A stretch of DNA of 64,000 bases from Pseudomonadota bacterium (lineage in GTDB: Bacteria > Pseudomonadota > Gammaproteobacteria > Magnimaribacterales > D2472): positions 25,848-89,847 of the forward strand of contig JAOOBR010000002.1 of the NCBI GenBank assembly GCA_028404565.1, given 5' to 3'. Shown here piece after piece: positions 3,215-63,503 of this stretch; the first letter of the stretch is position 1, and each line of letters begins with the position of its first letter. The notes under the pieces are model-generated. The model made no database searches, had not been told where the DNA came from, and worked only from the letters and a program-made list of their open reading frames with translations. The translations under genes were made by a program, and so were the position numbers.

Positions 3215-5041
3215 ATGTGTGGGATCATTGGAGCAACCTCATCGAGGAGTGTAGGCAAAATCTTAATAAAAGGTCTTCATGCTATGGAATATAGAGGTTA
3301 TGACTCAGCAGGCGTTGCTCTCAACCAAGACAATGAAGTTTTCAGACTTAGATCACTAGGAAAGGTTTCAGCCCTTGAAGAGCTAATGGTAAACAATAAA
3401 CCAAAAGCAAATTCTGGAATAGCTCATACAAGATGGGCAACTCACGGGGCCCCATCAGAGGAAAATGCTCACCCTCATGGCTCACATGATGAAATCTACA
3501 TTGTTCATAATGGAATAATAGAAAACCATGACGAAATTAGAGATGAACTCAAAAGCAAAGGTTATGACATTGCTTCTGAAACTGATTCCGAGCTTATAGC
3601 TCATTTAATCCACTTAAATAAAACAGACTCACTATCAACTCTTGAGGCTTTAATAAATGCAACCAAAGAACTTAAAGGAGCTTTTTCAATAGCTGCCATA
3701 TCTTCAAAAGAAAAAGGCAAAATATATGCAGCTAAACAAAAGAGCCCACTACTGATTGGAAAAGGCATCGAAGAAAACTTTATTGCATCAGACCCATTAG
3801 CGATTGCCAACATAACCGAAAAGTTTTATCTACTGGAGGATGGAGACTTTGCAGAAATTACAGAAAATGACATTAAAATTTTTAACATTAATGGTGAGCC
3901 TGTTCAGAGAGAAGAGACAAAAATAGACGCAACACCAACATCAACAAGCAAAGGCAACTACTCACACTTTATGGAAAAAGAGATTTATGAGCAACCAGAT
4001 GCACTAGGAAATACCATATACGGCAGGCTTGGTGAAAATGATGTGTTGGATAACATTTTTGGTTTGGGTTCCAGCGATGCATTCAAAGGTGTAAAAAGGA
4101 TTCAGTTTGTAGCATGTGGCACCAGTCTTCATGCAGCAAAAACTGCCAGAAAGTGGTTTGAGGAAATATGTGAGATTCCTTGCTATATAGATTTTGCAAG
4201 TGAGTACAGATATAGGAATCCGATCGTTGAAGACAACACCCTTTTTGTAACAATATCTCAGTCTGGAGAGACAGCTGATACACTGGCTGCTTTAGAATAC
4301 GCACGAGCTGAAAAATATGTTGGTATTGTGACAATATGCAATGTTCCAACAAGCACCATGGCACGAGAAGCTGATTGGAAGATATTCACCAATGCAGGAC
4401 CCGAAATAGGAGTTGCATCAACTAAAGCTTTTACCACTCAATTAGCTGCTTTGCTGATGCTGGCTCTTTCAATTGCGAAAAGCCAAGATAAAAATACTGA
4501 TAAAAGAAAACAAGCAACACAGGAATTAAGAGAAACCCCATCATTAGTTGATCAAGCTTTTAATTTGAAGGAAAACATTTCTCAAATTACACAAAATATT
4601 TCTACTAAGCACAACGCATTGTTTTTAGGTAGAGGAATGTATTTCTCTATCGCACAAGAGGGAGCACTTAAATTAAAAGAAATATCATATATTCACGCTG
4701 AAGCATATCCAGCAGGAGAGCTGAAGCACGGACCCCTTGCTTTGGTTGATGAACAAATTCCAGTTATTGCTCTTGCTCCTGAGGATAGCCTAGTCGAGAA
4801 ACTTTTATCAAACCTCGAGGAGGTAAAAGCTAGGGGGGGTACACTATATGTTTTCGGAAATGCCAACTCAACTATCCAGATAAGCAAGGGAAGATTCATA
4901 AATATGCCTAATTGCGGGGATTACAATGCACCAATTATTTATACCATACCGCTTCAAATACTAGCCTATGAGGTAGCTTGTCTAAGAGGCACAGACGTAG
5001 ACCAGCCAAGAAATTTAGCTAAGTCAGTTACAGTGGAGTAG
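3215..5041 (+). CDS. glmS: Glutamine--fructose-6-phosphate aminotransferase
   Basis: 608 aa. N-terminal MCGI nucleophile, two SIS domains, C-terminal ...KSVTVE. Confidence 0.97.
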   Translation: MCGIIGATSSRSVGKILIKGLHAMEYRGYDSAGVALNQDNEVFRLRSLGKVSALEELMVNNKPKANSGIAHTRWATHGAPSEENAHPHGSHDEIYIVHNGIIENHDEIRDELKSKGYDIASETDSELIAHLIHLNKTDSLSTLEALINATKELKGAFSIAAISSKEKGKIYAAKQKSPLLIGKGIEENFIASDPLAIANITEKFYLLEDGDFAEITENDIKIFNINGEPVQREETKIDATPTSTSKGNYSHFMEKEIYEQPDALGNTIYGRLGENDVLDNIFGLGSSDAFKGVKRIQFVACGTSLHAAKTARKWFEEICEIPCYIDFASEYRYRNPIVEDNTLFVTISQSGETADTLAALEYARAEKYVGIVTICNVPTSTMAREADWKIFTNAGPEIGVASTKAFTTQLAALLMLALSIAKSQDKNTDKRKQATQELRETPSLVDQAFNLKENISQITQNISTKHNALFLGRGMYFSIAQEGALKLKEISYIHAEAYPAGELKHGPLALVDEQIPVIALAPEDSLVEKLLSNLEEVKARGGTLYVFGNANSTIQISKGRFINMPNCGDYNAPIIYTIPLQILAYEVACLRGTDVDQPRNLAKSVTVE

Positions 5042-5239
5042 TCTTAACCCACCCTTTATTTTTACCCACATTCTGCATGGGTTTTAAAAATCATTAAAAA
5101 TTAACCTCGGCAAAAATTACCCTAAAAATTTCACCTATTTTTTCGTGTTAGCAGAAGTTATAAGAGGTTGATATGACTGGTTGCGATCTCTTATGTGTAT
5201 TGATAAGACATTCATAAGGAGTTATGGCAGAATATTTTT

Positions 5240-5773
5240 ATGAAAAAATTAATAATATTTTTGCTATTACCAATTTCTATAAATGTTTCAGCAATTGATG
5301 GACTTTTGCTTGAATGCAAAAAAGACAACACCACAACCCATTTCTTTGAATTCAATATCCCAATAAGACAAAAAATTGCCCAATTTCTTGACCCTGATGG
5401 ATATGAAACACCAGTTCAAGTAAAAGTAACAACTGAGAATTATTTAAATCTTTCATGGGATGGTGATTATTACTACTTCAATAAAAATAAAATTTGGAGA
5501 TATGAAAATACATTCCCCCCAAGAACTGGTGAATGGATGATTGATAGAAAAACCGGAGAAATGAAAAGAGATATAAGGGAGTGTGAGAATTTATCAGATG
5601 CAGAGAGATTTATTGGCAGTGCAAGAGATGACCACCCTTGCCACCCAAACATGAGAAGAAAAAATTTAAAAGATGAACATTTAGGATATTGCGAAAAGAT
5701 TACCAAGAACAAATTTGAATTAGGGAAGAAAAAATTGTACAGACCCACTGCAAAGAAAAAAAATAAGTTTTAA
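5240..5773 (+). CDS. Hypothetical secreted protein with a Lys-rich C-terminus
   Basis: 177 aa. Signal-peptide-like MKKLIIFLLLPISINVSA. No family recognised. Confidence 0.55.
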   Translation: MKKLIIFLLLPISINVSAIDGLLLECKKDNTTTHFFEFNIPIRQKIAQFLDPDGYETPVQVKVTTENYLNLSWDGDYYYFNKNKIWRYENTFPPRTGEWMIDRKTGEMKRDIRECENLSDAERFIGSARDDHPCHPNMRRKNLKDEHLGYCEKITKNKFELGKKKLYRPTAKKKNKF

Positions 5774-5887
5774 TTAATTCATGGGCAATTTATGCAAGCA
5801 AACCCCAATACTTTTTAACTCTGCAGAAATTGCAGAGAATATAGGTTGGGTTAAGAACACTCTGCTAAGGCAGATTAATCTTAAACA

Positions 5888-6331
5888 GTGATTTTTGAAG
5901 ATTTCCTTACTCTAAAAGGCAAAGACTTTAAAGGAAGATCTCTTGAGGATATTTGGTCCTTTTCAGATGAAGAAATAGAAAACTATCACGACTTTATTCA
6001 AGTAGTTTTTCCATTAAACAAAGCCAGTCAAGCAGTTTTTCATGGACACTTTTTAGACAGCACAGAACTAGTGCAACAGATTAGAAACAACAAAGAGGCA
6101 ACTAACAATATTATCAAATCTTCTCATTGGTTTATTTCTTTCCTTAAAAGAAATATGTATTGGAATGCCCACTCTAATCACAATCAATGGAGAATAACTA
6201 GAGTTATAGAGTGCTTAAGACTACTGGTCTCTGATGAAGAGGCAGATAATTTTTACAAAAATGTTTTAGAATTACTCAAAGACAACAATCTAGTAAATAA
6301 GAGAACATTAGATTTTTGGAAAAATGCTTAG
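5888..6331 (+). CDS. Opioid growth factor receptor (OGFr) N-terminal-domain-like protein
   Basis: 147 aa with a GTG start. HDFIQVVFPL and SNHNQWRITRVIECLRLL line up with the human OGFr conserved region (H-YIQWLFPL, SHNNLRITRILKSLGELG). Confidence 0.7.
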   Translation: MIFEDFLTLKGKDFKGRSLEDIWSFSDEEIENYHDFIQVVFPLNKASQAVFHGHFLDSTELVQQIRNNKEATNNIIKSSHWFISFLKRNMYWNAHSNHNQWRITRVIECLRLLVSDEEADNFYKNVLELLKDNNLVNKRTLDFWKNA

Positions 6332-12422: not shown

Positions 12423-13058
12423 ATGATCAACCTAGAAGAAGTTAAACCATTTGCAGAGGGCGGCAATAGAGTTTGTTATATCCATCCCAACAATAAAAGC
12501 TTATGTTTGAAGATTAGCAAACCAGAAGTAGTAAAAAAAATGCGCTCAAATGCACCTTGGTACAAGAAGCTCAGATCAGAAAGAAGTTTTGACGATAACT
12601 ATAGGGAGGAGAGTGCGTACCAGCAAAGAGCTATAAAAGAAAACCCTCAAAAAATATGGAGTCATCTTGCAAAATGGTATGAATTTGTAGAAACCAGCAA
12701 GGGTCTGGCATCATGCACAGAGCTAATAACAAATAATGACAAAGTAGCCTTAAATTTAGAAGAATATTTATTTAGCAAAGGAAGAACCTCAGAAATTGAT
12801 AAAGCTTTAAAAGAATTTGAGATATTTCTAAAAGAAACCAAACTACTAACAAAAAACATAATACCTCACAATCTTGCTGTAAAAGAAAATGATTCTGAGC
12901 TGACACTAAAAATAATTGATGGCCTTGGATGCATGTCTTTTATACCCCTTCCAGAAATTAGTAATACTTTTGCAGACAGATATATCAAGAGAAGGATTGA
13001 GTTAATGTATTCAAGGATTGAATGGGACTTATCCGGAAGAAAAGGAAGTTGGAAATAA
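12423..13058 (+). CDS. YrbL-family (PhoP regulatory network) kinase-fold protein
   Basis: 211 aa. N-terminus ...GGNRVCYIHPNNKSLCLKI... and ...IPHNLAV...IIDGLG... parallel E. coli YrbL. Confidence 0.7.
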   Translation: MINLEEVKPFAEGGNRVCYIHPNNKSLCLKISKPEVVKKMRSNAPWYKKLRSERSFDDNYREESAYQQRAIKENPQKIWSHLAKWYEFVETSKGLASCTELITNNDKVALNLEEYLFSKGRTSEIDKALKEFEIFLKETKLLTKNIIPHNLAVKENDSELTLKIIDGLGCMSFIPLPEISNTFADRYIKRRIELMYSRIEWDLSGRKGSWK

Positions 13059-13060
13059 GG

Positions 13061-13594
13061 ATGCTTATTTTAGTTGCAATTGAAGAGGAGCTGAAGAGAT
13101 CTGAACTCCCTGATCACGAGATAGAGTATGTCGGTGTTGGCAAAGTGAATGCAGTTTTTAATACCTTGAATGCAATAGAAAAATACTCACCAACACAAAT
13201 TGTAAATTTTGGAACAGCCGGATCCCTTGATGAAAACATAAAGGGACTTGTTGAGGTTTCAAGTTTTTTCCAAAGAGATATGGATGCATCACCTCTTGGT
13301 TTTAAAGTTGGTCAAACTCCATTTGAAGAAGATATCGAGATAACCTTTGGAAGAGAAGGAGTAACATGTGGCACTGGTGATATGTTTGTCACCAGCTTAC
13401 CAAATCTAAAAACAGATATTGTTGATATGGAGTCCTATGCCATTGCAAAAGTGTGCAAACTAAAAAATATTGACTTTAGGTGTTTTAAATTCATTTCAGA
13501 TAATGCAGATAATGAAGCAAAGGATGACTGGGTTGACAATGTTTCACTTGGCGCAAAGCTATTTATTGAAAAAATTGGTAGCTTAAAGGATTAA
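13061..13594 (+). CDS. MTA/SAH nucleosidase-family (PNP/UDP phosphorylase superfamily) protein
   Basis: Start moved to the ATG at 13061, which has an AAGGA-type RBS; the track start at 13022 overlaps the upstream gene. GVGKVNA, NFGTAGS, VDMESYAIAKVC and ISDNAD match Pfs/MtnN motifs, but the protein is shorter. Confidence 0.65.
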   Translation: MLILVAIEEELKRSELPDHEIEYVGVGKVNAVFNTLNAIEKYSPTQIVNFGTAGSLDENIKGLVEVSSFFQRDMDASPLGFKVGQTPFEEDIEITFGREGVTCGTGDMFVTSLPNLKTDIVDMESYAIAKVCKLKNIDFRCFKFISDNADNEAKDDWVDNVSLGAKLFIEKIGSLKD

Positions 13595-16848: not shown

Positions 16849-18138
16849 TTATAAAAAAAGAAACTTGGAAACAAAAACAGCAGTTAAGAACCAAGCGCCA
16901 GATGAAATGTTTTTAATTTCACCATTAGAAATCTTGAGGACAACGTATGCCAAGAATCCAAGAGCAATTCCATTTGCAATGGAAAATGTAAGCGGAATCA
17001 TTACTATGATAATCAGAGCTGGTAAAAGCTCTGTTGAATCTGACCAATTAAGCTTTTCCATACCACTCATCATAAGAATAGAAACATAAATTAATGCACC
17101 TGCAGTAGCATAGGCTGGCACAATTGCAGCAAGCGGCGAAAAGAAAATTGCAACCAAAAAGAGAAGACCTACCACTACAGTTGTTAAACCAGTTCTTCCC
17201 CCAGCTTCTACTCCCGCAGAACTCTCAACATAACTTGTAACAGGGGAACAACCAAAGAAAGTCCCAAATATACTTGAACTACTGTCAGCTTTCAGAGCTT
17301 TATCAAAGTTTTTTGCATTGCCTAACTCATCAGTTATTTTTGCTCTAGTAGCAACGCCTAACAAAGTTCCAGCAGTATCAAAAAGATTAACAAAAAGAAA
17401 TGACATCACGACACTTAGCATCGCAACATCAAGAGCCCCAAGTATATTCATTTTCATAAAAGTAGGAGCAATACTTGGAGGCATAGAAACCAATCCTCGA
17501 AATTCAATTAGTCCAAACAGGACAGAAAGAATTGTTACTAGCATTACCCCGATCAGGATAGCTCCTGGAGTATTTCTCACAGAGAGAGAACAAATAATAA
17601 GAAAGCCAAATGCTGCCAACAAAGTTTCAGGATTTGTGAAATCACCAAGACTAAGAAATGTAGCATTGTTCGCAACTATCAACCCTCCATTTTTTAGACC
17701 TATAAATCCAATAAATAAACCAACACCAGCTCCCATAGCAATTCGAAGATTTAGCGGGATACTATCAAGCATCCACCTTCTCAATCTTGTTACGCTCATT
17801 ATGAAAAATAAAACACCTGCTAAGAACACTGCACCAAGCGCAACCTCCCATGAGTAACCCATTTCGCCTACAACCGTATAAGTAAAAAATGCATTTAGTC
17901 CCATTCCTGGAGCTAAACTTACTGGCCAATTTGAATAAATCCCCATAATTATGCAAGCCAACGAAGCTGCAAGACATGTACCTACAAAACTCGCACCAAG
18001 ATCCATGCCACTTACTGACATCATCTGAGGATTAACAAATATGATATAGGCCATTGTGACAAAGGTAGTGATACCAGCCAAAACCTCTTTGCCTAGGGAG
18101 GTATTATTCGATTGAAGTTTGAAGACTTTTTCTAACAT
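16849..18138 (-). CDS. NCS2/AzgA-family purine (adenine/guanine/hypoxanthine) permease
   Basis: 429 aa polytopic protein. N-terminus ...EVLAGITTFVTMAYIIFVNPQ... is typical of AzgA/PurP/GhxP permeases. Confidence 0.85.
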   Translation of the reverse strand: MLEKVFKLQSNNTSLGKEVLAGITTFVTMAYIIFVNPQMMSVSGMDLGASFVGTCLAASLACIIMGIYSNWPVSLAPGMGLNAFFTYTVVGEMGYSWEVALGAVFLAGVLFFIMSVTRLRRWMLDSIPLNLRIAMGAGVGLFIGFIGLKNGGLIVANNATFLSLGDFTNPETLLAAFGFLIICSLSVRNTPGAILIGVMLVTILSVLFGLIEFRGLVSMPPSIAPTFMKMNILGALDVAMLSVVMSFLFVNLFDTAGTLLGVATRAKITDELGNAKNFDKALKADSSSSIFGTFFGCSPVTSYVESSAGVEAGGRTGLTTVVVGLLFLVAIFFSPLAAIVPAYATAGALIYVSILMMSGMEKLNWSDSTELLPALIIIVMIPLTFSIANGIALGFLAYVVLKISNGEIKNISSGAWFLTAVFVSKFLFL

Positions 18139-18330
18139 TTAGATAAATTTTACAGGTTTAAACATACAAATTTAGGTTTTAAAGCAAAAAAAACAAAAAA
18201 AGTCGTCCAATCTTGATTTGAAGCTTGTTAAGTCAAAATTTAGAAAGTATTATTTTATATTGTGATTTGATTTGCACCATCTCCATGGTTAAAAAGGAGC
18301 TCAAATTTTTTGAGTAATATGTGAGTTAAA

Positions 18331-18378
18331 ATCGTTCAACTCTTCGGAGTCGGAAGTAAGCGAAAGCTGAAGGAACGC
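18331..18378 (+). promoter_or_regulatory. Glutamine riboswitch-like aptamer (glnA RNA type), copy 1 of a tandem pair
   Basis: AUCGUUCA-ACUC-UUCG-GAGU-CGGAAGUA-AGC-GAAA-GCU-GAAGGAACGC. P1 is CGUUC/GAACG, enclosing two tetraloop hairpins. The conserved cores match my recollection of the glnA RNA consensus. Confidence 0.65.
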
Positions 18379-18382
18379 AAAA

Positions 18383-18430
18383 ATCGTTCATCTCTTAGGA
18401 GACGGAAGTAGGTGAAAACCGAAGGAACGC
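18383..18430 (+). promoter_or_regulatory. Glutamine riboswitch-like aptamer (glnA RNA type), copy 2 of a tandem pair
   Basis: AUCGUUCA-UCUC-UUAG-GAGA-CGGAAGUA-GGU-GAAA-ACC-GAAGGAACGC. Same architecture as copy 1, with compensatory base-pair changes in both hairpins. Confidence 0.65.
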
Positions 18431-18435
18431 CGCTT

Positions 18436-18476
18436 GTTAAACGGACCGAGTTTAACTTCAATTGTCCTGCAGACAA
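18436..18476 (+). promoter_or_regulatory. Two hairpins between the aptamers and the receptor RBS (possible expression platform)
   Basis: GTTAAAC-GGACCGA-GTTTAAC (18436-18456) and TTGTC-CTGCA-GACAA (18462-18476). No U-tract follows, so they are not classic terminators. The GGGGA SD lies at about 18500. Confidence 0.3.
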
Positions 18477-18509
18477 AATACAAAATAAAAAACTTTACGG
18501 GGAAATTTT

Positions 18510-20828
18510 ATGAAAAATTATGTAAATCTTTTATTTAAAAAAGTTATTTTAGCTTCTTTTGTGTGTGCTTTTGGATTGAGTTCGATAGCGCAGGAGGTTG
18601 AAGAGGTGGTTGTAACAGCTGAAAAACGTTCTGAAAGCCTTCAGGATATATCACAAGCAGTTACTGCATTAACAGCAACCGATATTGAAGAAAAAAATAT
18701 AACCAGTTTTGTAGACCTAAGCGCTATTGTGCCTGGTGTAACCGTAGCTAAAAACGAAGGTTATAAAACAATAATCTCAATAAGAGGAGTAGGTAACGAG
18801 ACAAACCAGAATGCTATTGCAGCTCCATCAGTTGCATACCACATGGATGGTGTATTTATAGCTTCTCCATTTGCGCTGGGAACAGATTTTTTAGATGTTG
18901 AGAGAATTGAAGTATTGAGAGGGCCACAAGGAACACTTTTTGGTCAGAACTCTACAGGTGGAGCTGTTAATGTTATTAGCAGAGCCCCAACAACAGAGGG
19001 AGCAGAAGGAAAACTAAGCGTAACCTTTGGTGATTACAATCTAAAAAAAGTAAGCACTTCTAATAATTTTGTAATATCTGACAAAATTGCATCAAGATTC
19101 TCAATATCCTCAACAACAAGAGATGGGTTTAGTAAGAATGTTGTTACAGGTCAAGATCTTGATGATGACAATAACAAAAGCTTCAGAACAGATTGGATGT
19201 TTGATTTAAACGATACTTCAAGCCTAAGAGTCTTCGGTCAATATTTCAAAGTCGATAGAAATGGTGCTGCTATGCGTGGAATCGATGATCAAACTTCTGG
19301 AATGAGAAAACTTTCTCAAGACACTGTTTCTCAGCATGAGTTATCATCAATGGTTGTTGCAGCAATCTATGAATCTGATCTTGGGTACGCTAACTTAAAA
19401 ATAATAGCGAGTGTTCAGGAAGATGATGTCCTAGTTGTTAGAGACAATGATAGACATAATTACCTTGATCCAGTTTTATCAATTGAAGGACTTCCAGCAG
19501 GATCAACTTATCAAAGAGCTGAATTTACCCCTGAGACTTCCTTAGTTGATACCTCAACATTTGAAATTAATTTAGTTTCAAATGAGCCCGCTCTTAACGG
19601 GAAACTTGATTGGACTGTTGGTGCATTTTACATGGATCATGAGATAGAAAATGTGATTAGAGGTTATAGAGATGATGACTTAGACGGAAGAATTAAGTAT
19701 CTATGCGATGAATCCTTTGCTGATCCAAGTTATTGCTATGACCATGATTATGGAATCCCTGGAAGGTTTGATATATTTGGACCAAATGCAGAAGTTGATT
19801 TCTTTACTGATGCAAACCCAAGCAGAGAGTCTTACTCAGTTTATGCACAAACAACCTATAGTCTAGCGGATGCTTTCAGAATTGTATCTGGACTCCGTTA
19901 TTCAGAAGACACATTCACAACAGATGTAACAAACTTCTTAAATGTTGAATCTTTCCAAGAAGAGGGAACTACTGATGAAATAACATCAAGAGTAGTAGCT
20001 GAGGTTGATTTTTCTGAAGATCTTATGGGTTACTTCGCATTAGCAAGAGGATTTAAGCCTGGCGGAAGTAATTTAACATTTGGATTTGATGATGATAACG
20101 CCCCTCCGATGGTGTTTCCAACCTTCGAAGCTGAAACCGTTGACTCTGTTGAATTTGGTCTTAAATCAACCTTCGCTGATGGTGCTGCAAGAGCAAACAT
20201 AGCTGTTTTCTCTTATACATATGAAAATCTCCAATTCCAAGCTACTGATCCAGATATTTACAGAGGTGGTGTGGCAAATATACCCGAATCTGAAATGTCA
20301 GGTCTTGAGATTGAATTCACAGGATTCCTGACAGATTCACTCAGTCTTGATATGAATCTTGCATTCTTGGACTCAGAAGTAACATCAGATTATGAGGTTT
20401 TAGATAATGTTGATGCCTATCCTTATTTCTTTGGTGAAGAAGATATTAGATATGGTCTTAGAGAAAACGTAAAAGGCAACCAGCTTGCAAAAACACCAGA
20501 ATTTACAGCTGATATAACACTTAAACATGAAACTAATCTGGCTTCGGGCAACTCTTTAACTACTTTAGTTCAGTATGTAAAAAGGGGCGATTTCCAGCAA
20601 AGAGTTTCAAACAATCCTACTGTAGATTATGTTAGAAGTTATCAGATTGGAAATATTACAACCAGTATTGGTTTTAGTGATAACTTAGAAGTTGATTTTA
20701 TGCTTCTAAATATTTCCGATGAAGCTGGCGTCAACTCAAGCATGACAGATGTTTTTGGTGTTGCTGCTACAGGTCTAGAATTGATACCACCAAGACAATT
20801 TATGACAAGGATAAGATATAGCTTCTAG
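18510..20828 (+). CDS. TonB-dependent outer-membrane receptor
   Basis: 772 aa. Signal peptide, TonB-box/plug region (EEVVVTAEKR...RIEVLRGPQGTLFGQNSTGGAVNV), a long beta-barrel, and a C-terminal aromatic residue (...IRYSF). Confidence 0.92.
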   Translation: MKNYVNLLFKKVILASFVCAFGLSSIAQEVEEVVVTAEKRSESLQDISQAVTALTATDIEEKNITSFVDLSAIVPGVTVAKNEGYKTIISIRGVGNETNQNAIAAPSVAYHMDGVFIASPFALGTDFLDVERIEVLRGPQGTLFGQNSTGGAVNVISRAPTTEGAEGKLSVTFGDYNLKKVSTSNNFVISDKIASRFSISSTTRDGFSKNVVTGQDLDDDNNKSFRTDWMFDLNDTSSLRVFGQYFKVDRNGAAMRGIDDQTSGMRKLSQDTVSQHELSSMVVAAIYESDLGYANLKIIASVQEDDVLVVRDNDRHNYLDPVLSIEGLPAGSTYQRAEFTPETSLVDTSTFEINLVSNEPALNGKLDWTVGAFYMDHEIENVIRGYRDDDLDGRIKYLCDESFADPSYCYDHDYGIPGRFDIFGPNAEVDFFTDANPSRESYSVYAQTTYSLADAFRIVSGLRYSEDTFTTDVTNFLNVESFQEEGTTDEITSRVVAEVDFSEDLMGYFALARGFKPGGSNLTFGFDDDNAPPMVFPTFEAETVDSVEFGLKSTFADGAARANIAVFSYTYENLQFQATDPDIYRGGVANIPESEMSGLEIEFTGFLTDSLSLDMNLAFLDSEVTSDYEVLDNVDAYPYFFGEEDIRYGLRENVKGNQLAKTPEFTADITLKHETNLASGNSLTTLVQYVKRGDFQQRVSNNPTVDYVRSYQIGNITTSIGFSDNLEVDFMLLNISDEAGVNSSMTDVFGVAATGLELIPPRQFMTRIRYSF

Positions 20829-20887
20829 TAAAGCATTTAGCAACTGCTAGTTTATATATCAGGTCTGTTTGGAGTAATATACGCTTT

Positions 20888-21457
20888 ATGAAAAAGCATT
20901 TTATCCAGGCAGACCAGCTTCTAAAGGATTCTTTTAACTTAGCTTGGAAAATCTTTGAGAGTGGTTTTAAACCAGATTATATTATCGGTGTTTGGAGAGG
21001 CGGAGCTCCAGTTGGTATAGCAGTTCAGGAGTTCCTAGATTTTCTTGATGTTCCCTCAGATCATATAGCTATTAGAACCTCATATTATTCAGGGATTGAC
21101 TCTAGGAAAGATGAAGTTCAAGTTTATGGACTTAATTATGTTATTAGAAAAATTAAGTCGGATGACTCTCTATTAATTGTTGACGATGTTTATGACACAG
21201 GTATGTCAGTTAATAAGGTTGTAACGGATTTAGAATCTGCATGTAAAAAGAATACACCTGAAATACGAATAGCAACCCCATACTTCAAACCTAGTAAAAA
21301 TAAGACAGATAGAATACCTGATTACTATATACATGAAACAGATGAGTGGCTTGTTTTTCCTCATGAACTTCAGGGCTTATCCATGGACGAAATAAAAGGA
21401 AATAAACCCGAGCTAGACTCACTTATCAAAAATATTGAGGCATTGAAGTCTAAATGA
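20888..21457 (+). CDS. Purine phosphoribosyltransferase-family protein (Gpt/Hpt-like)
   Basis: 189 aa. PRPP-binding motif LLIVDDVYDTGMS and Gpt-like overall layout (RGG...VG, ...EWLVFPHE). Confidence 0.7.
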   Translation: MKKHFIQADQLLKDSFNLAWKIFESGFKPDYIIGVWRGGAPVGIAVQEFLDFLDVPSDHIAIRTSYYSGIDSRKDEVQVYGLNYVIRKIKSDDSLLIVDDVYDTGMSVNKVVTDLESACKKNTPEIRIATPYFKPSKNKTDRIPDYYIHETDEWLVFPHELQGLSMDEIKGNKPELDSLIKNIEALKSK

Positions 21458-22302
21458 CTAACTTAACGGTTGCAGAAGTTTATGCAATAGGATTACCTAT
21501 CATCTATGGAATGATTGCCCTTGAGGCCATTTTTTCATCTCTTACCAACAAATCTTTTTATAGATTAGATGATACCTTGTGCACTGCAGGATTGCTTATC
21601 GGAAATATTCTAATTGGATCTGCTGCAAAGGGGCTATCTTTTGCAGTTCATATCTTTCTTTATCAGTTCAGAGTAATCGATTTAGCAAGCATCATACCCC
21701 TTTGGCTTATGTGGGTATTAGCTTTTGTCTTAATAGATTTAGTTTTTTATATTTACCATAGGCTTTCACACAGGGTAAGATTTCTTTGGGCTATTCATAT
21801 GAGTCATCACTCAAGCGAGGAAATGAACTTTGCAGTATCCCTTCGACAAGCATGGTTTGCACCATTGTCAAAACTTCCCTTTTTTGCAGTGTTACCTTTG
21901 GTAGGAATGGATCCTACCATTGTTGTTATTGCTGGAGTTATAAGCACGCTTTGGGGAGTAGTTGGGCATACACAAATTGTTGATAAGTTGGGACCACTAG
22001 AAATTATTTTTAATACTCCTTCTCACCACAGAGTCCATCATGGGGCCAATAAAGAGTACATCGATAAGAATTATGGCAACCTTTTTATTATTTGGGACAA
22101 GATGTTCGGAACATTTGAGCCCGAGAAAGCACCAGTAAAATATGGGTTAGTTAACAATGTTAATACATTTAATCCTGTAAGGATTACCTTTATGGGATGG
22201 AGCGCAATACTTAAAGATATAAGAAAAGCGAAAACAGTTAAAGAAGCTTTGTCGCTGACATTTGGGCCGCCAAATACTAAATTAAGAGGCGGCTCATTTT
22301 AA
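21454..22302 (+). CDS. Sterol desaturase / fatty acid hydroxylase superfamily membrane protein
   Basis: 282 aa. Histidine boxes HRLSH, HMSHH and HHRVHH. Confidence 0.75.
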   Translation: MTNLTVAEVYAIGLPIIYGMIALEAIFSSLTNKSFYRLDDTLCTAGLLIGNILIGSAAKGLSFAVHIFLYQFRVIDLASIIPLWLMWVLAFVLIDLVFYIYHRLSHRVRFLWAIHMSHHSSEEMNFAVSLRQAWFAPLSKLPFFAVLPLVGMDPTIVVIAGVISTLWGVVGHTQIVDKLGPLEIIFNTPSHHRVHHGANKEYIDKNYGNLFIIWDKMFGTFEPEKAPVKYGLVNNVNTFNPVRITFMGWSAILKDIRKAKTVKEALSLTFGPPNTKLRGGSF

Positions 22303-60314: not shown

Positions 60315-60413
60315 ATTTATATTCAACAACTGCATTAAGACAATGAAATTTTTTTTTGAGGTTTCTGTATCAATTGTTAGAATATCAGGACACCACATAT
60401 GAGGGAGTGTGTT

Positions 60414-61169
60414 ATGTTGACTAAAAAACTTACCTTGTCATTTATCTTTTTGGTAAGTACATCTTTTTTATCTGCCAGTGAGATGGAATCAGTATTAGAA
60501 GTTGGTAGAGAAAACTCTAGCCAAAGTGCTGCTTCACAAGAAAAAATTGATAGTACCGAAAAACAAACCGACAAGATTGTAAATGAATATAAAGTAGTAG
60601 CTAAGCAAGTAGAAGGGCTTAAGTTATATAACGAACAAAAAAGAATCCAAATTCAGGCCCAGCTTGATTTAATGGATAAGCTTGATGAGCAGTTGGTGCA
60701 GGTTGTTGTAATGCAAAGACAAATCCCACCATTGGCTCAGAGAATGCTTGAGGGGCTTGAGCAATTTGTTGCGCTGGATACTCCATTCTATATTGATGAA
60801 AGATTGGAAAGAATAGACATTGTAAGAAGTTCATTATCGAATCCAAAAATAACTGCATCAGAACAAGTAAGGCAGATACTTGAAGCATATAACATCGAGG
60901 CAGAGTACGGTAGAAAGATTTCCTCATATGAAGATACTATCGTTATCGATGGTAAAGAGATGGTAGTTAATGTTCTTGTTGTTGGAAGAATAGGAATGTT
61001 CTATCAAACTAAGGATGAGCAGCAAAGTGGTTTCTGGAATAACGAAACAAATGACTGGGAAGAGGTTTCAGGCTATAGAACAGCTATTAGAGATGGCATA
61101 AGAATGGCCAAGAAACTTGCACCTACAGATATGCTTCTATTACCTGTTGTTAAAGGGGGTGCAAGATGA
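60414..61169 (+). CDS. DUF3450-family periplasmic coiled-coil protein of TonB2-type systems
   Basis: Start placed at MLTKK..., which has GAGGGAG upstream (the track start is 60399). Signal peptide, coiled-coil region, and position ahead of MotA/ExbB-family genes. Confidence 0.6.
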   Translation: MLTKKLTLSFIFLVSTSFLSASEMESVLEVGRENSSQSAASQEKIDSTEKQTDKIVNEYKVVAKQVEGLKLYNEQKRIQIQAQLDLMDKLDEQLVQVVVMQRQIPPLAQRMLEGLEQFVALDTPFYIDERLERIDIVRSSLSNPKITASEQVRQILEAYNIEAEYGRKISSYEDTIVIDGKEMVVNVLVVGRIGMFYQTKDEQQSGFWNNETNDWEEVSGYRTAIRDGIRMAKKLAPTDMLLLPVVKGGAR

Positions 61170-62554
61170 GACTTTTAAAAATTTATCTATTCGCACTTTT
61201 AATTAGCAGTAACCAGATTTTAGTTGCCCAAGAAGACGTTACTGAAGGCGAGGCTCCTTCTACCGTCCAACAACTCCTTGAACTGGTTAAAGAAGGCCAA
61301 GTCAGAGAACAATCTGAAAATGCAGTTCGTGAAGCTGAGTTTATGGCAAACAAGAATAAACAAGCATCTATCCTTGCTGCTGAAAAAAGAGAGCTTGCAA
61401 GACAGGAAAGGATTGCTGACCAGCTAGAAGCTGAGTATAAAAAGAACGAAGAAATTCTAAGAGTTAAAGAAGAAGCTTATAAAAAAGAGCTTGGCTCACT
61501 TGTAGAATTATTTGGACATCTTCAAAGTGCATCTGGAGAAGCAGCTGTGCAGTTTACTGGTTCATTATCATCTGCTCAATTTGGTACTGAAAGAGTTGAT
61601 TTCTTAAACAACCTGACAGCTAAAATGTCGGAGACAACAGAACTCCCAACAATCAGAGAAATTGAAGGTCTTTGGTATGAGCTTCAAAGAGAAATGGTTG
61701 CAGGTGGAGAAATTGCTTCTTTTGAGGCAAGTGTTATTGATGTAGATGGCGAAACTTCAAATTGTAATGTAGTTCGCGTCGGGCTCTTTAATGCTGTTTG
61801 TGACGGTAAGTATCTAGAATTTGCGGCATCCAAAGGACAATATGCATTTTTACCAAGACAACCTGAGGGAAGATATACAAGAACTGCAAACAACATTGCA
61901 TCAGCAGGAGTTGGTGAGCAAGTAACTTTCGGTATTGACCCTACAGGGCCTACTGGAGGAAGCCTTCTTGCTAACCTAATTCAAACACCAAGCTTAACTG
62001 AAAGATTAGCTCAAGGTAGAGAGATTGGTTATGCGATTGTTATAGTTGGTCTTCTCGGTACTCTTTTAGCTTTATATAAACTCTATGTTTTATATGTAAC
62101 TGGAAGAGCAGTAAGAAAGCAATCGAAATCAAAAGCTCTTAACTCTAATAATCCACTTGGAAGAGTTTTAAAAGTTGGAGAAGAACACTTCTCAAAAGAT
62201 ATAGATACATTAGAACTAAAACTTGCAGAAGCTATCATGGCAGAAAGGCCTGATATAGAAAGATACATTGGCATTGTTAAGATTATTTCAGTTGTTGCTC
62301 CGTTGGCAGGATTGCTTGGAACAGTAACAGGAATGATTGTTACATTCCAACAAATTACTCTTTATGGAACAGGTGATCCAAAACTAATGGCCGGCGGTAT
62401 TTCGCAGGCTCTTGTAACTACGGTTCTTGGACTGCTTGTGGCGATTCCTACAACTTTACTCCATTCATTTGCAAACTCATCTGCGCGTGAAATTGTTGGT
62501 GTTCTTGAGGAGCAAAGTACTGGAATATTAGCCGAAAGAGCTGAAAGTAAATAA
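61166..62554 (+). CDS. Large MotA/TolQ/ExbB-family proton-channel protein (TtpC-like)
   Basis: 462 aa. Long periplasmic coiled-coil N-terminus, with an ExbB-like C-terminus (...APLAGLLGTVTGMI...). Confidence 0.75.
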   Translation: MRLLKIYLFALLISSNQILVAQEDVTEGEAPSTVQQLLELVKEGQVREQSENAVREAEFMANKNKQASILAAEKRELARQERIADQLEAEYKKNEEILRVKEEAYKKELGSLVELFGHLQSASGEAAVQFTGSLSSAQFGTERVDFLNNLTAKMSETTELPTIREIEGLWYELQREMVAGGEIASFEASVIDVDGETSNCNVVRVGLFNAVCDGKYLEFAASKGQYAFLPRQPEGRYTRTANNIASAGVGEQVTFGIDPTGPTGGSLLANLIQTPSLTERLAQGREIGYAIVIVGLLGTLLALYKLYVLYVTGRAVRKQSKSKALNSNNPLGRVLKVGEEHFSKDIDTLELKLAEAIMAERPDIERYIGIVKIISVVAPLAGLLGTVTGMIVTFQQITLYGTGDPKLMAGGISQALVTTVLGLLVAIPTTLLHSFANSSAREIVGVLEEQSTGILAERAESK

Positions 62555-63081
62555 TGATTTACGCTATAACTGAATCTTTTATTTCTATCAGAGACTTCAT
62601 GGAAGCTGGTGGAAGTGTGCTTTGGTTAATAGCTCTTTTGGTTCTTTTAATGTGGGGATTGATATTTGAAAGAATATATTATCTTTCACATGGCCATGAT
62701 GTTTTTCTTAATTCTCTTGTTTCCAAATGGGATTCAAGAGCCGACAAAACTTCATGGCATGCTCTACAAATTAGAGAAAAATTTTTAGCAGAAGCAAAAT
62801 CTTCTATTAATAAGAATACGACATTAATAAAAACATGCATTGCATTAGCTCCATTATTTGGTTTGCTTGGAACAGTGACTGGAATGATCGAGGTCTTCCA
62901 AGTTATGGCTTTCAGTGGTGGCGGCGATGCGAGAGCAATGGCTGGAGGTGTTTCTAAAGCAACGCTTCCAACCATGGCAGGCATGGTTGTATCTCTATCA
63001 GGAATTTTTGCAATGATTTATATTTCTAGTGTAAGCGAGAGGCACACTGGAATTCTTGAAGAAAAAATTAAAAGAGTTTAG
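62554..63081 (+). CDS. exbB: MotA/TolQ/ExbB proton channel protein
   Basis: 175 aa. ...LAPLFGLLGTVTGMIEVF... motif. Confidence 0.8.
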   Translation: MIYAITESFISIRDFMEAGGSVLWLIALLVLLMWGLIFERIYYLSHGHDVFLNSLVSKWDSRADKTSWHALQIREKFLAEAKSSINKNTTLIKTCIALAPLFGLLGTVTGMIEVFQVMAFSGGGDARAMAGGVSKATLPTMAGMVVSLSGIFAMIYISSVSERHTGILEEKIKRV

Positions 63082-63092
63082 GAGAAGTTAAA

Positions 63093-63503
63093 GTGAGAAG
63101 AAACGCAATATCTACAGCAGTTCAAGAGGAAGAGAGCGAGATTAATATCACCCCAATGTTGGATGTGGTATTTATTATGCTCATTTTCTTTATTGTTACT
63201 GCAAACTTTATTAAAGAGCCAGGTTTAGAAATAAATAGACCTGATTCAGACACAGCTGAAACTCAAGAAAATGCAGCTATTCTTATCGCAGTTGGCCCAA
63301 CTGGAGAAGTTTGGATGGATGGAAGAAGAATTGATGTAAGGCAAGTTAAAGCTAATGTTGTAAAACTTTTAGCTGATAATCCTCAAGGGTCAGTAGTGAT
63401 CCAAGCAGATGAGAAGGCAGTTGCGGATACCATAATTAAAGTTATGGATGGAGCAAGAGAAGCAGGCGTATCTGCTATATCTTTAGCCTCAGAGCCAAAG
63501 TAG
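63093..63503 (+). CDS. exbD: Biopolymer transport protein ExbD/TolR
   Basis: 136 aa with a GTG start. ...INITPMLDVVFIMLIFF... is a typical ExbD N-terminus. Confidence 0.85.
   Translation: MRRNAISTAVQEEESEINITPMLDVVFIMLIFFIVTANFIKEPGLEINRPDSDTAETQENAAILIAVGPTGEVWMDGRRIDVRQVKANVVKLLADNPQGSVVIQADEKAVADTIIKVMDGAREAGVSAISLASEPK

Follow-up and report, generated by a model that had tools for sequence, protein, structure and literature searches.

TonB-dependent transporters that carry substrates other than iron include BtuB for cobalamin, PqqU for pyrroloquinoline quinone (PQQ), and receptors reported for thiamine, sucrose, maltodextrin, and chitin oligomers, and the rut pyrimidine-utilization operon of E. 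coli is an example of a nitrogen-scavenging operon that depends on sigma-54. For nucleic-acid material, a SusCD-type TonB system, DdbCD, lies among nucleases in a Bacteroidales DNA-utilization locus and has been proposed to import DNA fragments (PMC12478041), and a purine assimilation module consisting of a purine permease and a purine phosphoribosyltransferase (PRTase) has been described in SAR11 (Braakman et al. 2025, PMC11698098). Here, we describe a 64,000-nt stretch of contig JAOOBR010000002.1 (hereafter the window; all coordinates are positions within it unless a locus is named, and labels from L001 upward denote related genome loci), in which a gene for a TonB-dependent outer-membrane receptor, preceded by a tandem glutamine riboswitch, lies between the genes for a predicted purine permease and a PRTase. 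From comparisons of sequence and gene order, we judge it probable, with a fair margin for doubt, that these three genes form one cassette that scavenges purine nucleobases from dilute seawater across both membranes, apparently under nitrogen control.

The window belongs to SAR86, a gammaproteobacterial group, as its closest receptor homologues (96% identity) are found in single-cell genomes of the SAR86 cluster. SAR86 is very abundant in the surface ocean, and the two main SAR86 genome papers make no mention of purines and treat its receptors as siderophore, lipid, or carbohydrate carriers (PMC3358033, PMC11582366). In the study that described the SAR11 module, purine-use genes were absent from 57 SAR86 genomes, and SAR86 was called a thymidine specialist (PMC11698098). 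Glutamine riboswitches, in turn, were known only from cyanobacteria and from marine metagenomes without an assigned taxon, where those upstream of glnA plausibly act negatively (PMC6212724). In our literature search, no paper connected purine bases with TonB-dependent receptors, and none connected such receptors with glutamine riboswitches.

The permease, receptor, and phosphoribosyltransferase genes and their conservation

All three open reading frames (ORFs) were verified at the positions given in a preliminary description of this DNA, which had proposed a permease and a receptor transcribed divergently and a PRTase behind the latter. The receptor gene (18510-20828, + strand) encodes 772 amino acids (aa), with the N-terminal plug (Pfam Plug, PF07715, E 1e-17) and C-terminal 22-strand barrel (TonB_dep_Rec_b-barrel, PF00593, E 4e-28) of a TonB-dependent transporter, and represents what we call the purine-associated receptor family. 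Read by eye, its translation begins with a signal peptide, carries the TonB box EEVVVTA, and ends in F (MKNYVNLLFKKVILASFVCAFGLSSIAQ / EVEEVVVTAEKR ... RIRYSF). An AlphaFold2 model of the receptor (predicted template modeling score 0.71) has confident barrel strands, and pocket analysis was ruled out because the extracellular loops are of low confidence (predicted local distance difference test below 50).

On the opposite strand, the gene at 16849-18138 (− strand, 429 aa) encodes an AzgA-like purine nucleobase permease of the NCS2 superfamily (PF00860 Xan_ur_permease, E 3.6e-47), with a predicted transport function at the inner membrane. Among solved proteins, it is closest to the Arabidopsis adenine/guanine permeases AZG1 (E 7e-66) and AZG2 (E 1e-48), and no model matched it in an NCBIfam scan. 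Behind the receptor, at 20888-21457 (+ strand, 189 aa, PF00156), lies the gene for a type I purine PRTase of the archaeal, Hpt1/Gpt-like group, the putative cytoplasmic trapping step. Of the solved structures, 1VDM, a purine PRTase of P. horikoshii (E 5e-16, residues 11-160), and the Sulfolobus enzymes GpT-2 and GpT-1 match it best; it has the phosphoribosyl pyrophosphate motif LLIVDDVYDTG, and the Lys of its YFKP aligns with MKP/LKP of solved purine PRTases. The 59-nt spacer between receptor and PRTase (20829-20887, + strand) was said in the preliminary description to hold no convincing terminator, and this was borne out by an empty terminator scan and a weak fold (-6.4 kcal/mol, no T-run); receptor and PRTase are therefore likely co-transcribed in the window. 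Across 74 loci, this spacer has a median length of 58 nt.

Conservation was assessed in 80 genome loci collected by a profile search with receptor homologues, these being the best of 172 matches. When the window's ten local proteins were compared with these loci by tblastn, only the permease and the PRTase still adjoined the receptor below ~80% receptor identity. Of the 70 loci that extend upstream of the receptor, 67 have the divergent permease as its direct neighbor, and of the 75 that extend downstream, 73 have the PRTase next to it in the same orientation; the full triad was kept in 63 of the 66 loci for which both flanks were available, while the outer neighbors varied and the receptor ranged from 55 to 96% identity to that of the window. 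Clustering of all 1382 ORFs of the loci gave the same picture, with the receptor in 78 loci, the PRTase in 74, the permease in 70, and the next commonest cluster in at most 41. Such an arrangement is far beyond chance, and the conservation of the neighborhood, which the preliminary description had named as the check on its proposal, holds in both SAR86 and alphaproteobacteria as the outer genes change. The alphaproteobacterial triads, from the PS1 clade, OCS116, and Rhodobiaceae, lie in an unrelated housekeeping setting, between a glutathione S-transferase gene and rnd-lptC-lptA-lptB, and their receptors are ~59%, permeases 67-68%, and PRTases 67-70% identical to those of the window; these values suggest lateral transfer of the three genes as one unit. 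The same triad was found in one further metagenomic lineage.

Some further features were noted around the triad. In L036 (~4700-5900), the position of the permease holds an ORF that does not group with the permeases; a frameshift or other disruption of the permease, or a misassembly, may explain this. In the window, a fatty-acid hydroxylase family gene (21454-22302, + strand), weakly similar to OlsE, shares 4 nt with the PRTase gene at its stop codon and may be co-transcribed with receptor and PRTase in the window's clade; elsewhere, it is unlinked to the cassette. A protein of the PNP_UDP_1 phosphorylase/nucleosidase superfamily (13022-13594, + strand, 190 aa), encoded 3.3 kb from the permease, may be a nucleosidase releasing purine bases. 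Two exact-protein look-ups with window proteins, made for annotation, found no record.

Gene contexts of the receptor family and its probable substrate

After the triad itself, the most frequent neighbors are guaB (inosine monophosphate, IMP, dehydrogenase) and guaA (guanosine monophosphate, GMP, synthase). In 20 loci the order is receptor > PRTase > guaB > guaA, and in 15 these two genes enclose the cassette (guaB > < permease, receptor > PRTase > guaA), so that the triad lies beside or inside guaB-guaA in 35 SAR86 loci. A search with the more distant receptor of L069, followed by a look-up of the contexts of its relatives, revealed a wider family whose receptors share 50-77% mutual identity across purine, urease, and phage contexts and are 55-60% identical to the window receptor. 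In L085/L086 (8001-18265), the receptor homologue P0146 is accompanied by a RutR-like TetR regulator, 8-oxoguanine deaminase, xdhA, xdhB, xdhC, and another amidohydrolase; the NCBIfam equivalog scores there are 675 bits against a cut-off of 532 for the deaminase, 634 against 467 for XdhA, and 1228 against 850 for XdhB, and by these annotations the locus is a purine catabolic cluster with its own outer-membrane receptor. In L068/L069, the receptor directly follows a urease operon (ureG > receptor) and is succeeded by a PbuX-like xanthine permease, an AzgA-like permease, and an 8-oxoguanine deaminase (653 bits against the cut-off of 532), and in the L094 lineage ureDABCEFG lie immediately downstream of the receptor. 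Judged by the predicted functions of these partners, no compound class other than free purine bases is shared by all of them.

Family members also occur on phage contigs. A full-length receptor, P0130 (756 aa, 57% identical to that of the window), is encoded in L081/L082 (8001-10271) and L087-L092 (IMG/VR), flanked on one side by tail-fibre, baseplate, and virion genes and on the other by genes for peptide deformylase, ribonucleotide reductase, exonuclease, SbcCD, and helicase. This phage copy may serve as an auxiliary gene for purine supply.

Starting from the gene identities, the conserved linkage, and the alternative purine and urease contexts, all of which are observed, we infer both a substrate and a transport route. 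The receptor would bind a purine base, most likely a 6-oxopurine (hypoxanthine, xanthine, or guanine), and move it across the outer membrane with energy from ExbB/ExbD/TonB; 6-oxopurines are favored because the PRTase is Hpt1/Gpt-like with the FKP Lys and because other lineages pair the receptor with xdh, 8-oxoguanine deaminase, and a xanthine-type permease. The AzgA-type permease would then carry the base across the inner membrane, the PRTase would trap it as IMP, xanthosine monophosphate (XMP), or GMP, and the adjacent guaB and guaA of many SAR86 genomes could finish the path to GMP. As the conserved partner is a salvage PRTase, often with guaBA, the SAR86 route would be one of assimilation, in which salvaged purine spares the nitrogen cost of de novo synthesis, and not of catabolism for nitrogen; such catabolism is probably what the receptor feeds in the lineages where it is linked to urease or xdh. 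The energizing machinery on which any TonB-dependent receptor relies is present in the window as a run of genes for DUF3450, a long ExbB (462 aa), ExbB, and ExbD (60399-63503, + strand; Pfam DUF3450, MotA_ExbB twice, ExbD), and no TonB gene was seen between this cluster and the end of the window.

We weighed three other explanations of the receptor. First, the partner genes would also fit a receptor that imports a larger nucleic-acid compound (nucleosides, nucleotides, or short oligonucleotides), from which periplasmic enzymes would yield the bases for permease and PRTase. In its favor, TonB-dependent transporters usually carry substrates larger than ~300-600 Da and SAR86 receptors have been described likewise (Dupont et al.), the SusCD-type transporter of the Bacteroidales DNA-utilization locus has been proposed to import DNA fragments (PMC12478041), and the phage receptor copies adjoin nucleotide-metabolism genes. 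However, no nuclease, nucleotidase, or nucleoside hydrolase was conserved with the cassette in the contexts examined, the only conserved partners act on free bases, and the PNP_UDP_1-like protein lacks a signal peptide and occurs in the window's clade only, and we therefore regard this explanation as unlikely, although it is the strongest of the three.

Second, the substrate might be another nitrogen-rich compound linked to purine breakdown, e.g., urate, 8-oxoguanine, allantoin, a pterin, or a urea-related compound, which we consider improbable. The known relatives of the most widely conserved partners, the AzgA-type permease and the purine PRTase, act on adenine, guanine, hypoxanthine, and xanthine, and neither urate nor allantoin can be salvaged by a PRTase. 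It is the family members beside urease operons, and beside 8-oxoguanine deaminase and xdhABC, that speak for such a compound, together with the pterin-4a-carbinolamine dehydratase gene that adjoins the cassette in many SAR86 loci but belongs to a flank that many others have lost.

Third, we searched the receptor itself for signs of a different substrate. No substrate-defined NCBIfam equivalog came near its cut-off, the best being TIGR01783 at 107 against 223.5 bits with mainly the plug matched, and sequence matches to solved structures were weak. In a Foldseek search of solved structures, the receptor model matched many receptors for siderophores, haem, PQQ, and cobalamin to a similar degree and with 12-18% identity, with FyuA as the top match (E 4e-33, TM-score 0.83 normalized to the target). 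The clustering with receptors of a known unrelated substrate that, according to the preliminary description, would have spoken against its proposal was accordingly not seen. Regulation of the receptor by iron was also rejected, as the best Fur-box score in the window leader was 11/19 and the mean of 65 leaders (11.3) equaled that of background (11.1) and shuffled sequences (11.6). That the linkage carries no functional meaning, with the receptor importing something unrelated (an iron chelate, for instance) and two housekeeping salvage genes simply moving along with it, as the JGI annotation of its relatives ("iron complex outermembrane receptor protein") and the siderophore receptors among its best structural matches might suggest, is thus very improbable, since these annotations and matches are generic, the triad survives transfer between proteobacterial classes and the reshuffling of all other neighbors, and the family associates independently with four other purine or nitrogen gene sets.

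Sigma-54 promoters and the glutamine riboswitch upstream of the receptor

The region between permease and receptor is ~371 nt long in the riboswitch-bearing clade of the window, whereas it measures 120-230 nt elsewhere, and these shorter leaders carry a canonical sigma-54 promoter, TTGGCAT-N5-TTGCAT, ~60-90 nt before the receptor ATG. The motif GGCA[CT]-N5-TTGC[ATC] matched 78 times on both strands of 1.51 Mb, against ~6 matches expected from base composition by our own estimate; 56 of these closely precede the receptor, as do 2 more in truncated loci, and most of the others are intragenic. The motif is present in the alphaproteobacterial loci (AGGCATACTTCTTGCT) and in the urease-linked loci (TGGCACGATCCNTGC), the latter with NtrC-like sites 124-153 nt upstream. 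Sites of NtrC type (TGCAC-N7-GTGCA) matching at 8-9 of 10 positions were found only in L067-L069, and a perfect palindrome was recognized by eye in L073.

In the window, the corresponding -24/-12 site (18261-18277, + strand) is a degenerate sequence and probably a remnant, TGTGAT-TTGAT-TTGCAC as compared with TGGCAT-N5-TTGCAT in other clades, in which the spacing is kept and the essential GG has become GT, so that it does not qualify as a canonical sigma-54 promoter; a mutated -24 element is a feature of the riboswitch-bearing leaders. A sigma-70-like promoter candidate just upstream (TTGTTA-17 nt-TATTAT, 18225-18253, + strand, 9/12 matches in a consensus scan) is conserved in all 8 leaders of the window's clade. 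Downstream of both sites stand two glutamine riboswitch aptamers (type I, glnA RNA motif) in tandem on the + strand, at 18331-18381 and 18383-18433. They score 66.3 and 65.1 bits with RF01739 (gathering score 35) and 63.5 and 69.2 with our own covariance model, and each covers model positions 1-53 of 53, which confirms the glutamine-sensing leader of the preliminary description. The second aptamer ends 76 nt before the receptor ATG, and the presumed expression platform between them (18434-18509, + strand) contains an A-rich stretch, the Shine-Dalgarno sequence GGGGA (18499-18503), and two small hairpins (GTTAAAC/GTTTAAC, the first, and TTGTC/GACAA).

The tandem aptamers precede the receptor only in the window and its seven nearest relatives, L001-L007, at a receptor identity of at least 81% (regular expression, Rfam, and our own covariance model). 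Run over 86 sources, the covariance model added no weaker glutamine aptamers to those of the window's clade and of four loci in which a small ORF is present, and a Rfam gathering scan of the receptor leaders of other clades (12 loci) returned neither a purine riboswitch nor any other known one. The riboswitch is therefore not a general feature of the cassette; it occupies the place of the sigma-54 promoter of 56-58 other loci. In the window's clade, the sigma-54 promoter appears to have decayed, and a constitutive promoter together with the tandem glutamine riboswitch appears to have taken over control. Nitrogen-limitation regulons are a typical setting of sigma-54 promoters, and urease genes lie beside several members of the family; together with the exchange of the two regulatory devices, this supports the view that expression of the cassette is probably under nitrogen control. 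From the sigma-54 promoters and urease neighbors, the riboswitch might be expected to reduce expression at high glutamine, a sign that we offer as a weak prediction. The preliminary description had proposed a nitrogen-status-controlled route for acquiring purines, nucleosides, or another nitrogen-rich compound on the strength of the glutamine-sensing leader and the three genes, and this proposal is supported by the purine contexts (guaBA, xdhABC, urease) and the sigma-54 link, with two corrections: the riboswitch is confined to one clade, and the SAR86 route appears to be assimilatory.

Several other features were noted in these leaders. Those of the window's clade are too alike for covariation analysis, with one G-U wobble change in the first platform hairpin (L003), and the minimum-free-energy fold pairs the two aptamers with each other and was considered uninformative. 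Upstream of the aptamers, a conserved segment (18285-18325, TTGCACCATCTCCATGGTTAAAAAGGAGCTCAA...TTGAG) keeps a CTCAA/TTGAG stem while its loop varies (TTTTTT vs GTGA); a leader peptide starting at ~18285 (MVKKELKFFE) was rejected because the ORF is not conserved in L003. In another SAR86 clade (L035, 8168-8464, − strand; also L036, L037, and L043), a tandem glutamine riboswitch lies just after the permease gene and precedes a conserved 53-aa ORF (MTKMEMMRFKNAVKK...) and a terminator; the window lacks a homologue of this ORF, and the second aptamer includes CATCTC, the complement of part of the ORF's Shine-Dalgarno region (GGAGATG), which would fit an ON switch. Near the permease start, an inverted repeat (AACTTATAA...TTATAAGTT) conserved in L023-L033, L040-L042, L049-L056, L063, and L078 may be an operator or part of the permease promoter.

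Weighing the purine reading and comparison with known systems

A number of observations weigh against a nitrogen-controlled purine cassette. First, purine bases, at ~135-170 Da, fall far below the size of classical TonB substrates and could enter through porins, and the PRTase scores below the NCBIfam cut-offs for both XPRT (NF006613, 34.9 vs 138 bits) and HGPRT (TIGR01203, 32.3 vs 150), so that its base specificity is a prediction. Second, the receptor and PRTase are separated by a terminator-like strong hairpin with a T-run in 11 loci (including L043, L022, and L054), and the alphaproteobacterial spacers (L071-L077) hold a sigma-70-like TTGACT-N17-TATTAA site, such that the PRTase there seems to be transcribed from a promoter of its own; co-transcription thus does not extend to all loci. 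Third, enterobacterial-type NtrC sites were not found in the AT-rich SAR86 leaders, and their sigma-54 promoter may therefore answer to a signal other than nitrogen; no gene for an enhancer-binding activator with the GAFTGA motif was found in any locus or in the window. Fourth, folding of the window leader gave no clear terminator or Shine-Dalgarno sequestration (z-scores 0.5-0.7), and the only experimentally characterized glutamine riboswitches, which are cyanobacterial, are required for downstream expression (gifB leader; Klaehn et al. 2018, PMC6212724), which, if read as ON at high glutamine, is opposite to what nitrogen scavenging would predict. Finally, the 80 loci, as best matches, are not a random sample. 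Apart from these points, the hairpin between receptor and PRTase in the 11 loci could be an attenuator or a terminator.

We thus return to the purine cassette as the probable reading, and a bolder version of it may be put forward tentatively, at somewhat less than even odds: that this is a new TonB-receptor family for purine nucleobases, organized as a portable two-membrane salvage cassette, near-universal in SAR86 and common in alphaproteobacteria of PS1 type, whose nitrogen control can be exchanged between a sigma-54 promoter and a tandem OFF riboswitch (the first such logic, and the first gammaproteobacterial host of the riboswitch), and that marine phages captured the receptor as an auxiliary gene to feed nucleotide synthesis in infected cells. 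Few heterotrophs of the surface ocean are as abundant as SAR86, which is noted for its surplus of TonB-dependent receptors, with substrates (siderophores, lipids, or carbohydrates) assigned mostly by guesswork. If the purine reading holds, purines would be a new substrate class for TonB-dependent transport, the picture of SAR86 as lacking purine-use genes and taking part in oceanic purine/pyrimidine cross-feeding through thymidine only (PMC11698098) would be revised, and dissolved purines would be tied to the nitrogen economy of oligotrophic waters. Further, glutamine riboswitches of marine metagenomes would gain a host in SAR86 and a new type of regulated gene, the locus would offer a natural experiment in which a riboswitch stands in place of a sigma-54 promoter, and the phage-borne receptor copies suggest that viruses exploit this uptake route as well. 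Together, these features point to a family of TonB-dependent transporters for which the implied substrate class is new and in which regulatory devices have been exchanged in an unusual way.

Among the non-iron TonB-dependent transporters, the receptor shares the plug and 22-strand barrel, the TonB box, and the dependence on ExbB/ExbD/TonB, as well as, by our reading, the high-affinity capture of a scarce nutrient and its hand-over to an inner-membrane carrier; it differs in its identity of at most 12-18% to solved members, in matching no NCBIfam equivalog, and in an unusually small implied substrate. The nearest functional analogue is DdbCD, with which it would have in common a TonB-dependent outer-membrane step feeding nucleic-acid-derived material into nucleobase metabolism, but the window receptor has neither a lipoprotein lid nor nucleases and is paired instead with a nucleobase permease and a PRTase. 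With sigma-54-dependent nitrogen-scavenging operons such as rut, most relatives share a -24/-12 promoter before a putative nucleobase-acquisition operon, and L067-L069 share the NtrC-like sites, whereas in the window itself the GG of the -24 element is mutated. The riboswitch belongs to the same aptamer class as that of cyanobacterial gifB (RF01739, well above the gathering threshold), but unlike the latter it is tandem, gammaproteobacterial, and placed before an outer-membrane receptor gene rather than that of a glutamine-synthetase inactivating factor, and it stands where relatives have a sigma-54 promoter. Finally, the cassette resembles the SAR11 module in that a transporter and a purine PRTase would form an assimilatory first step in a streamlined oligotrophic marine bacterium, and differs from it in the outer-membrane receptor, which the SAR11 module, as described, does not include. 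Being near-universal in the SAR86 loci examined, the cassette contradicts, or at least qualifies, the reported absence of purine-use genes from SAR86 (PMC11698098).

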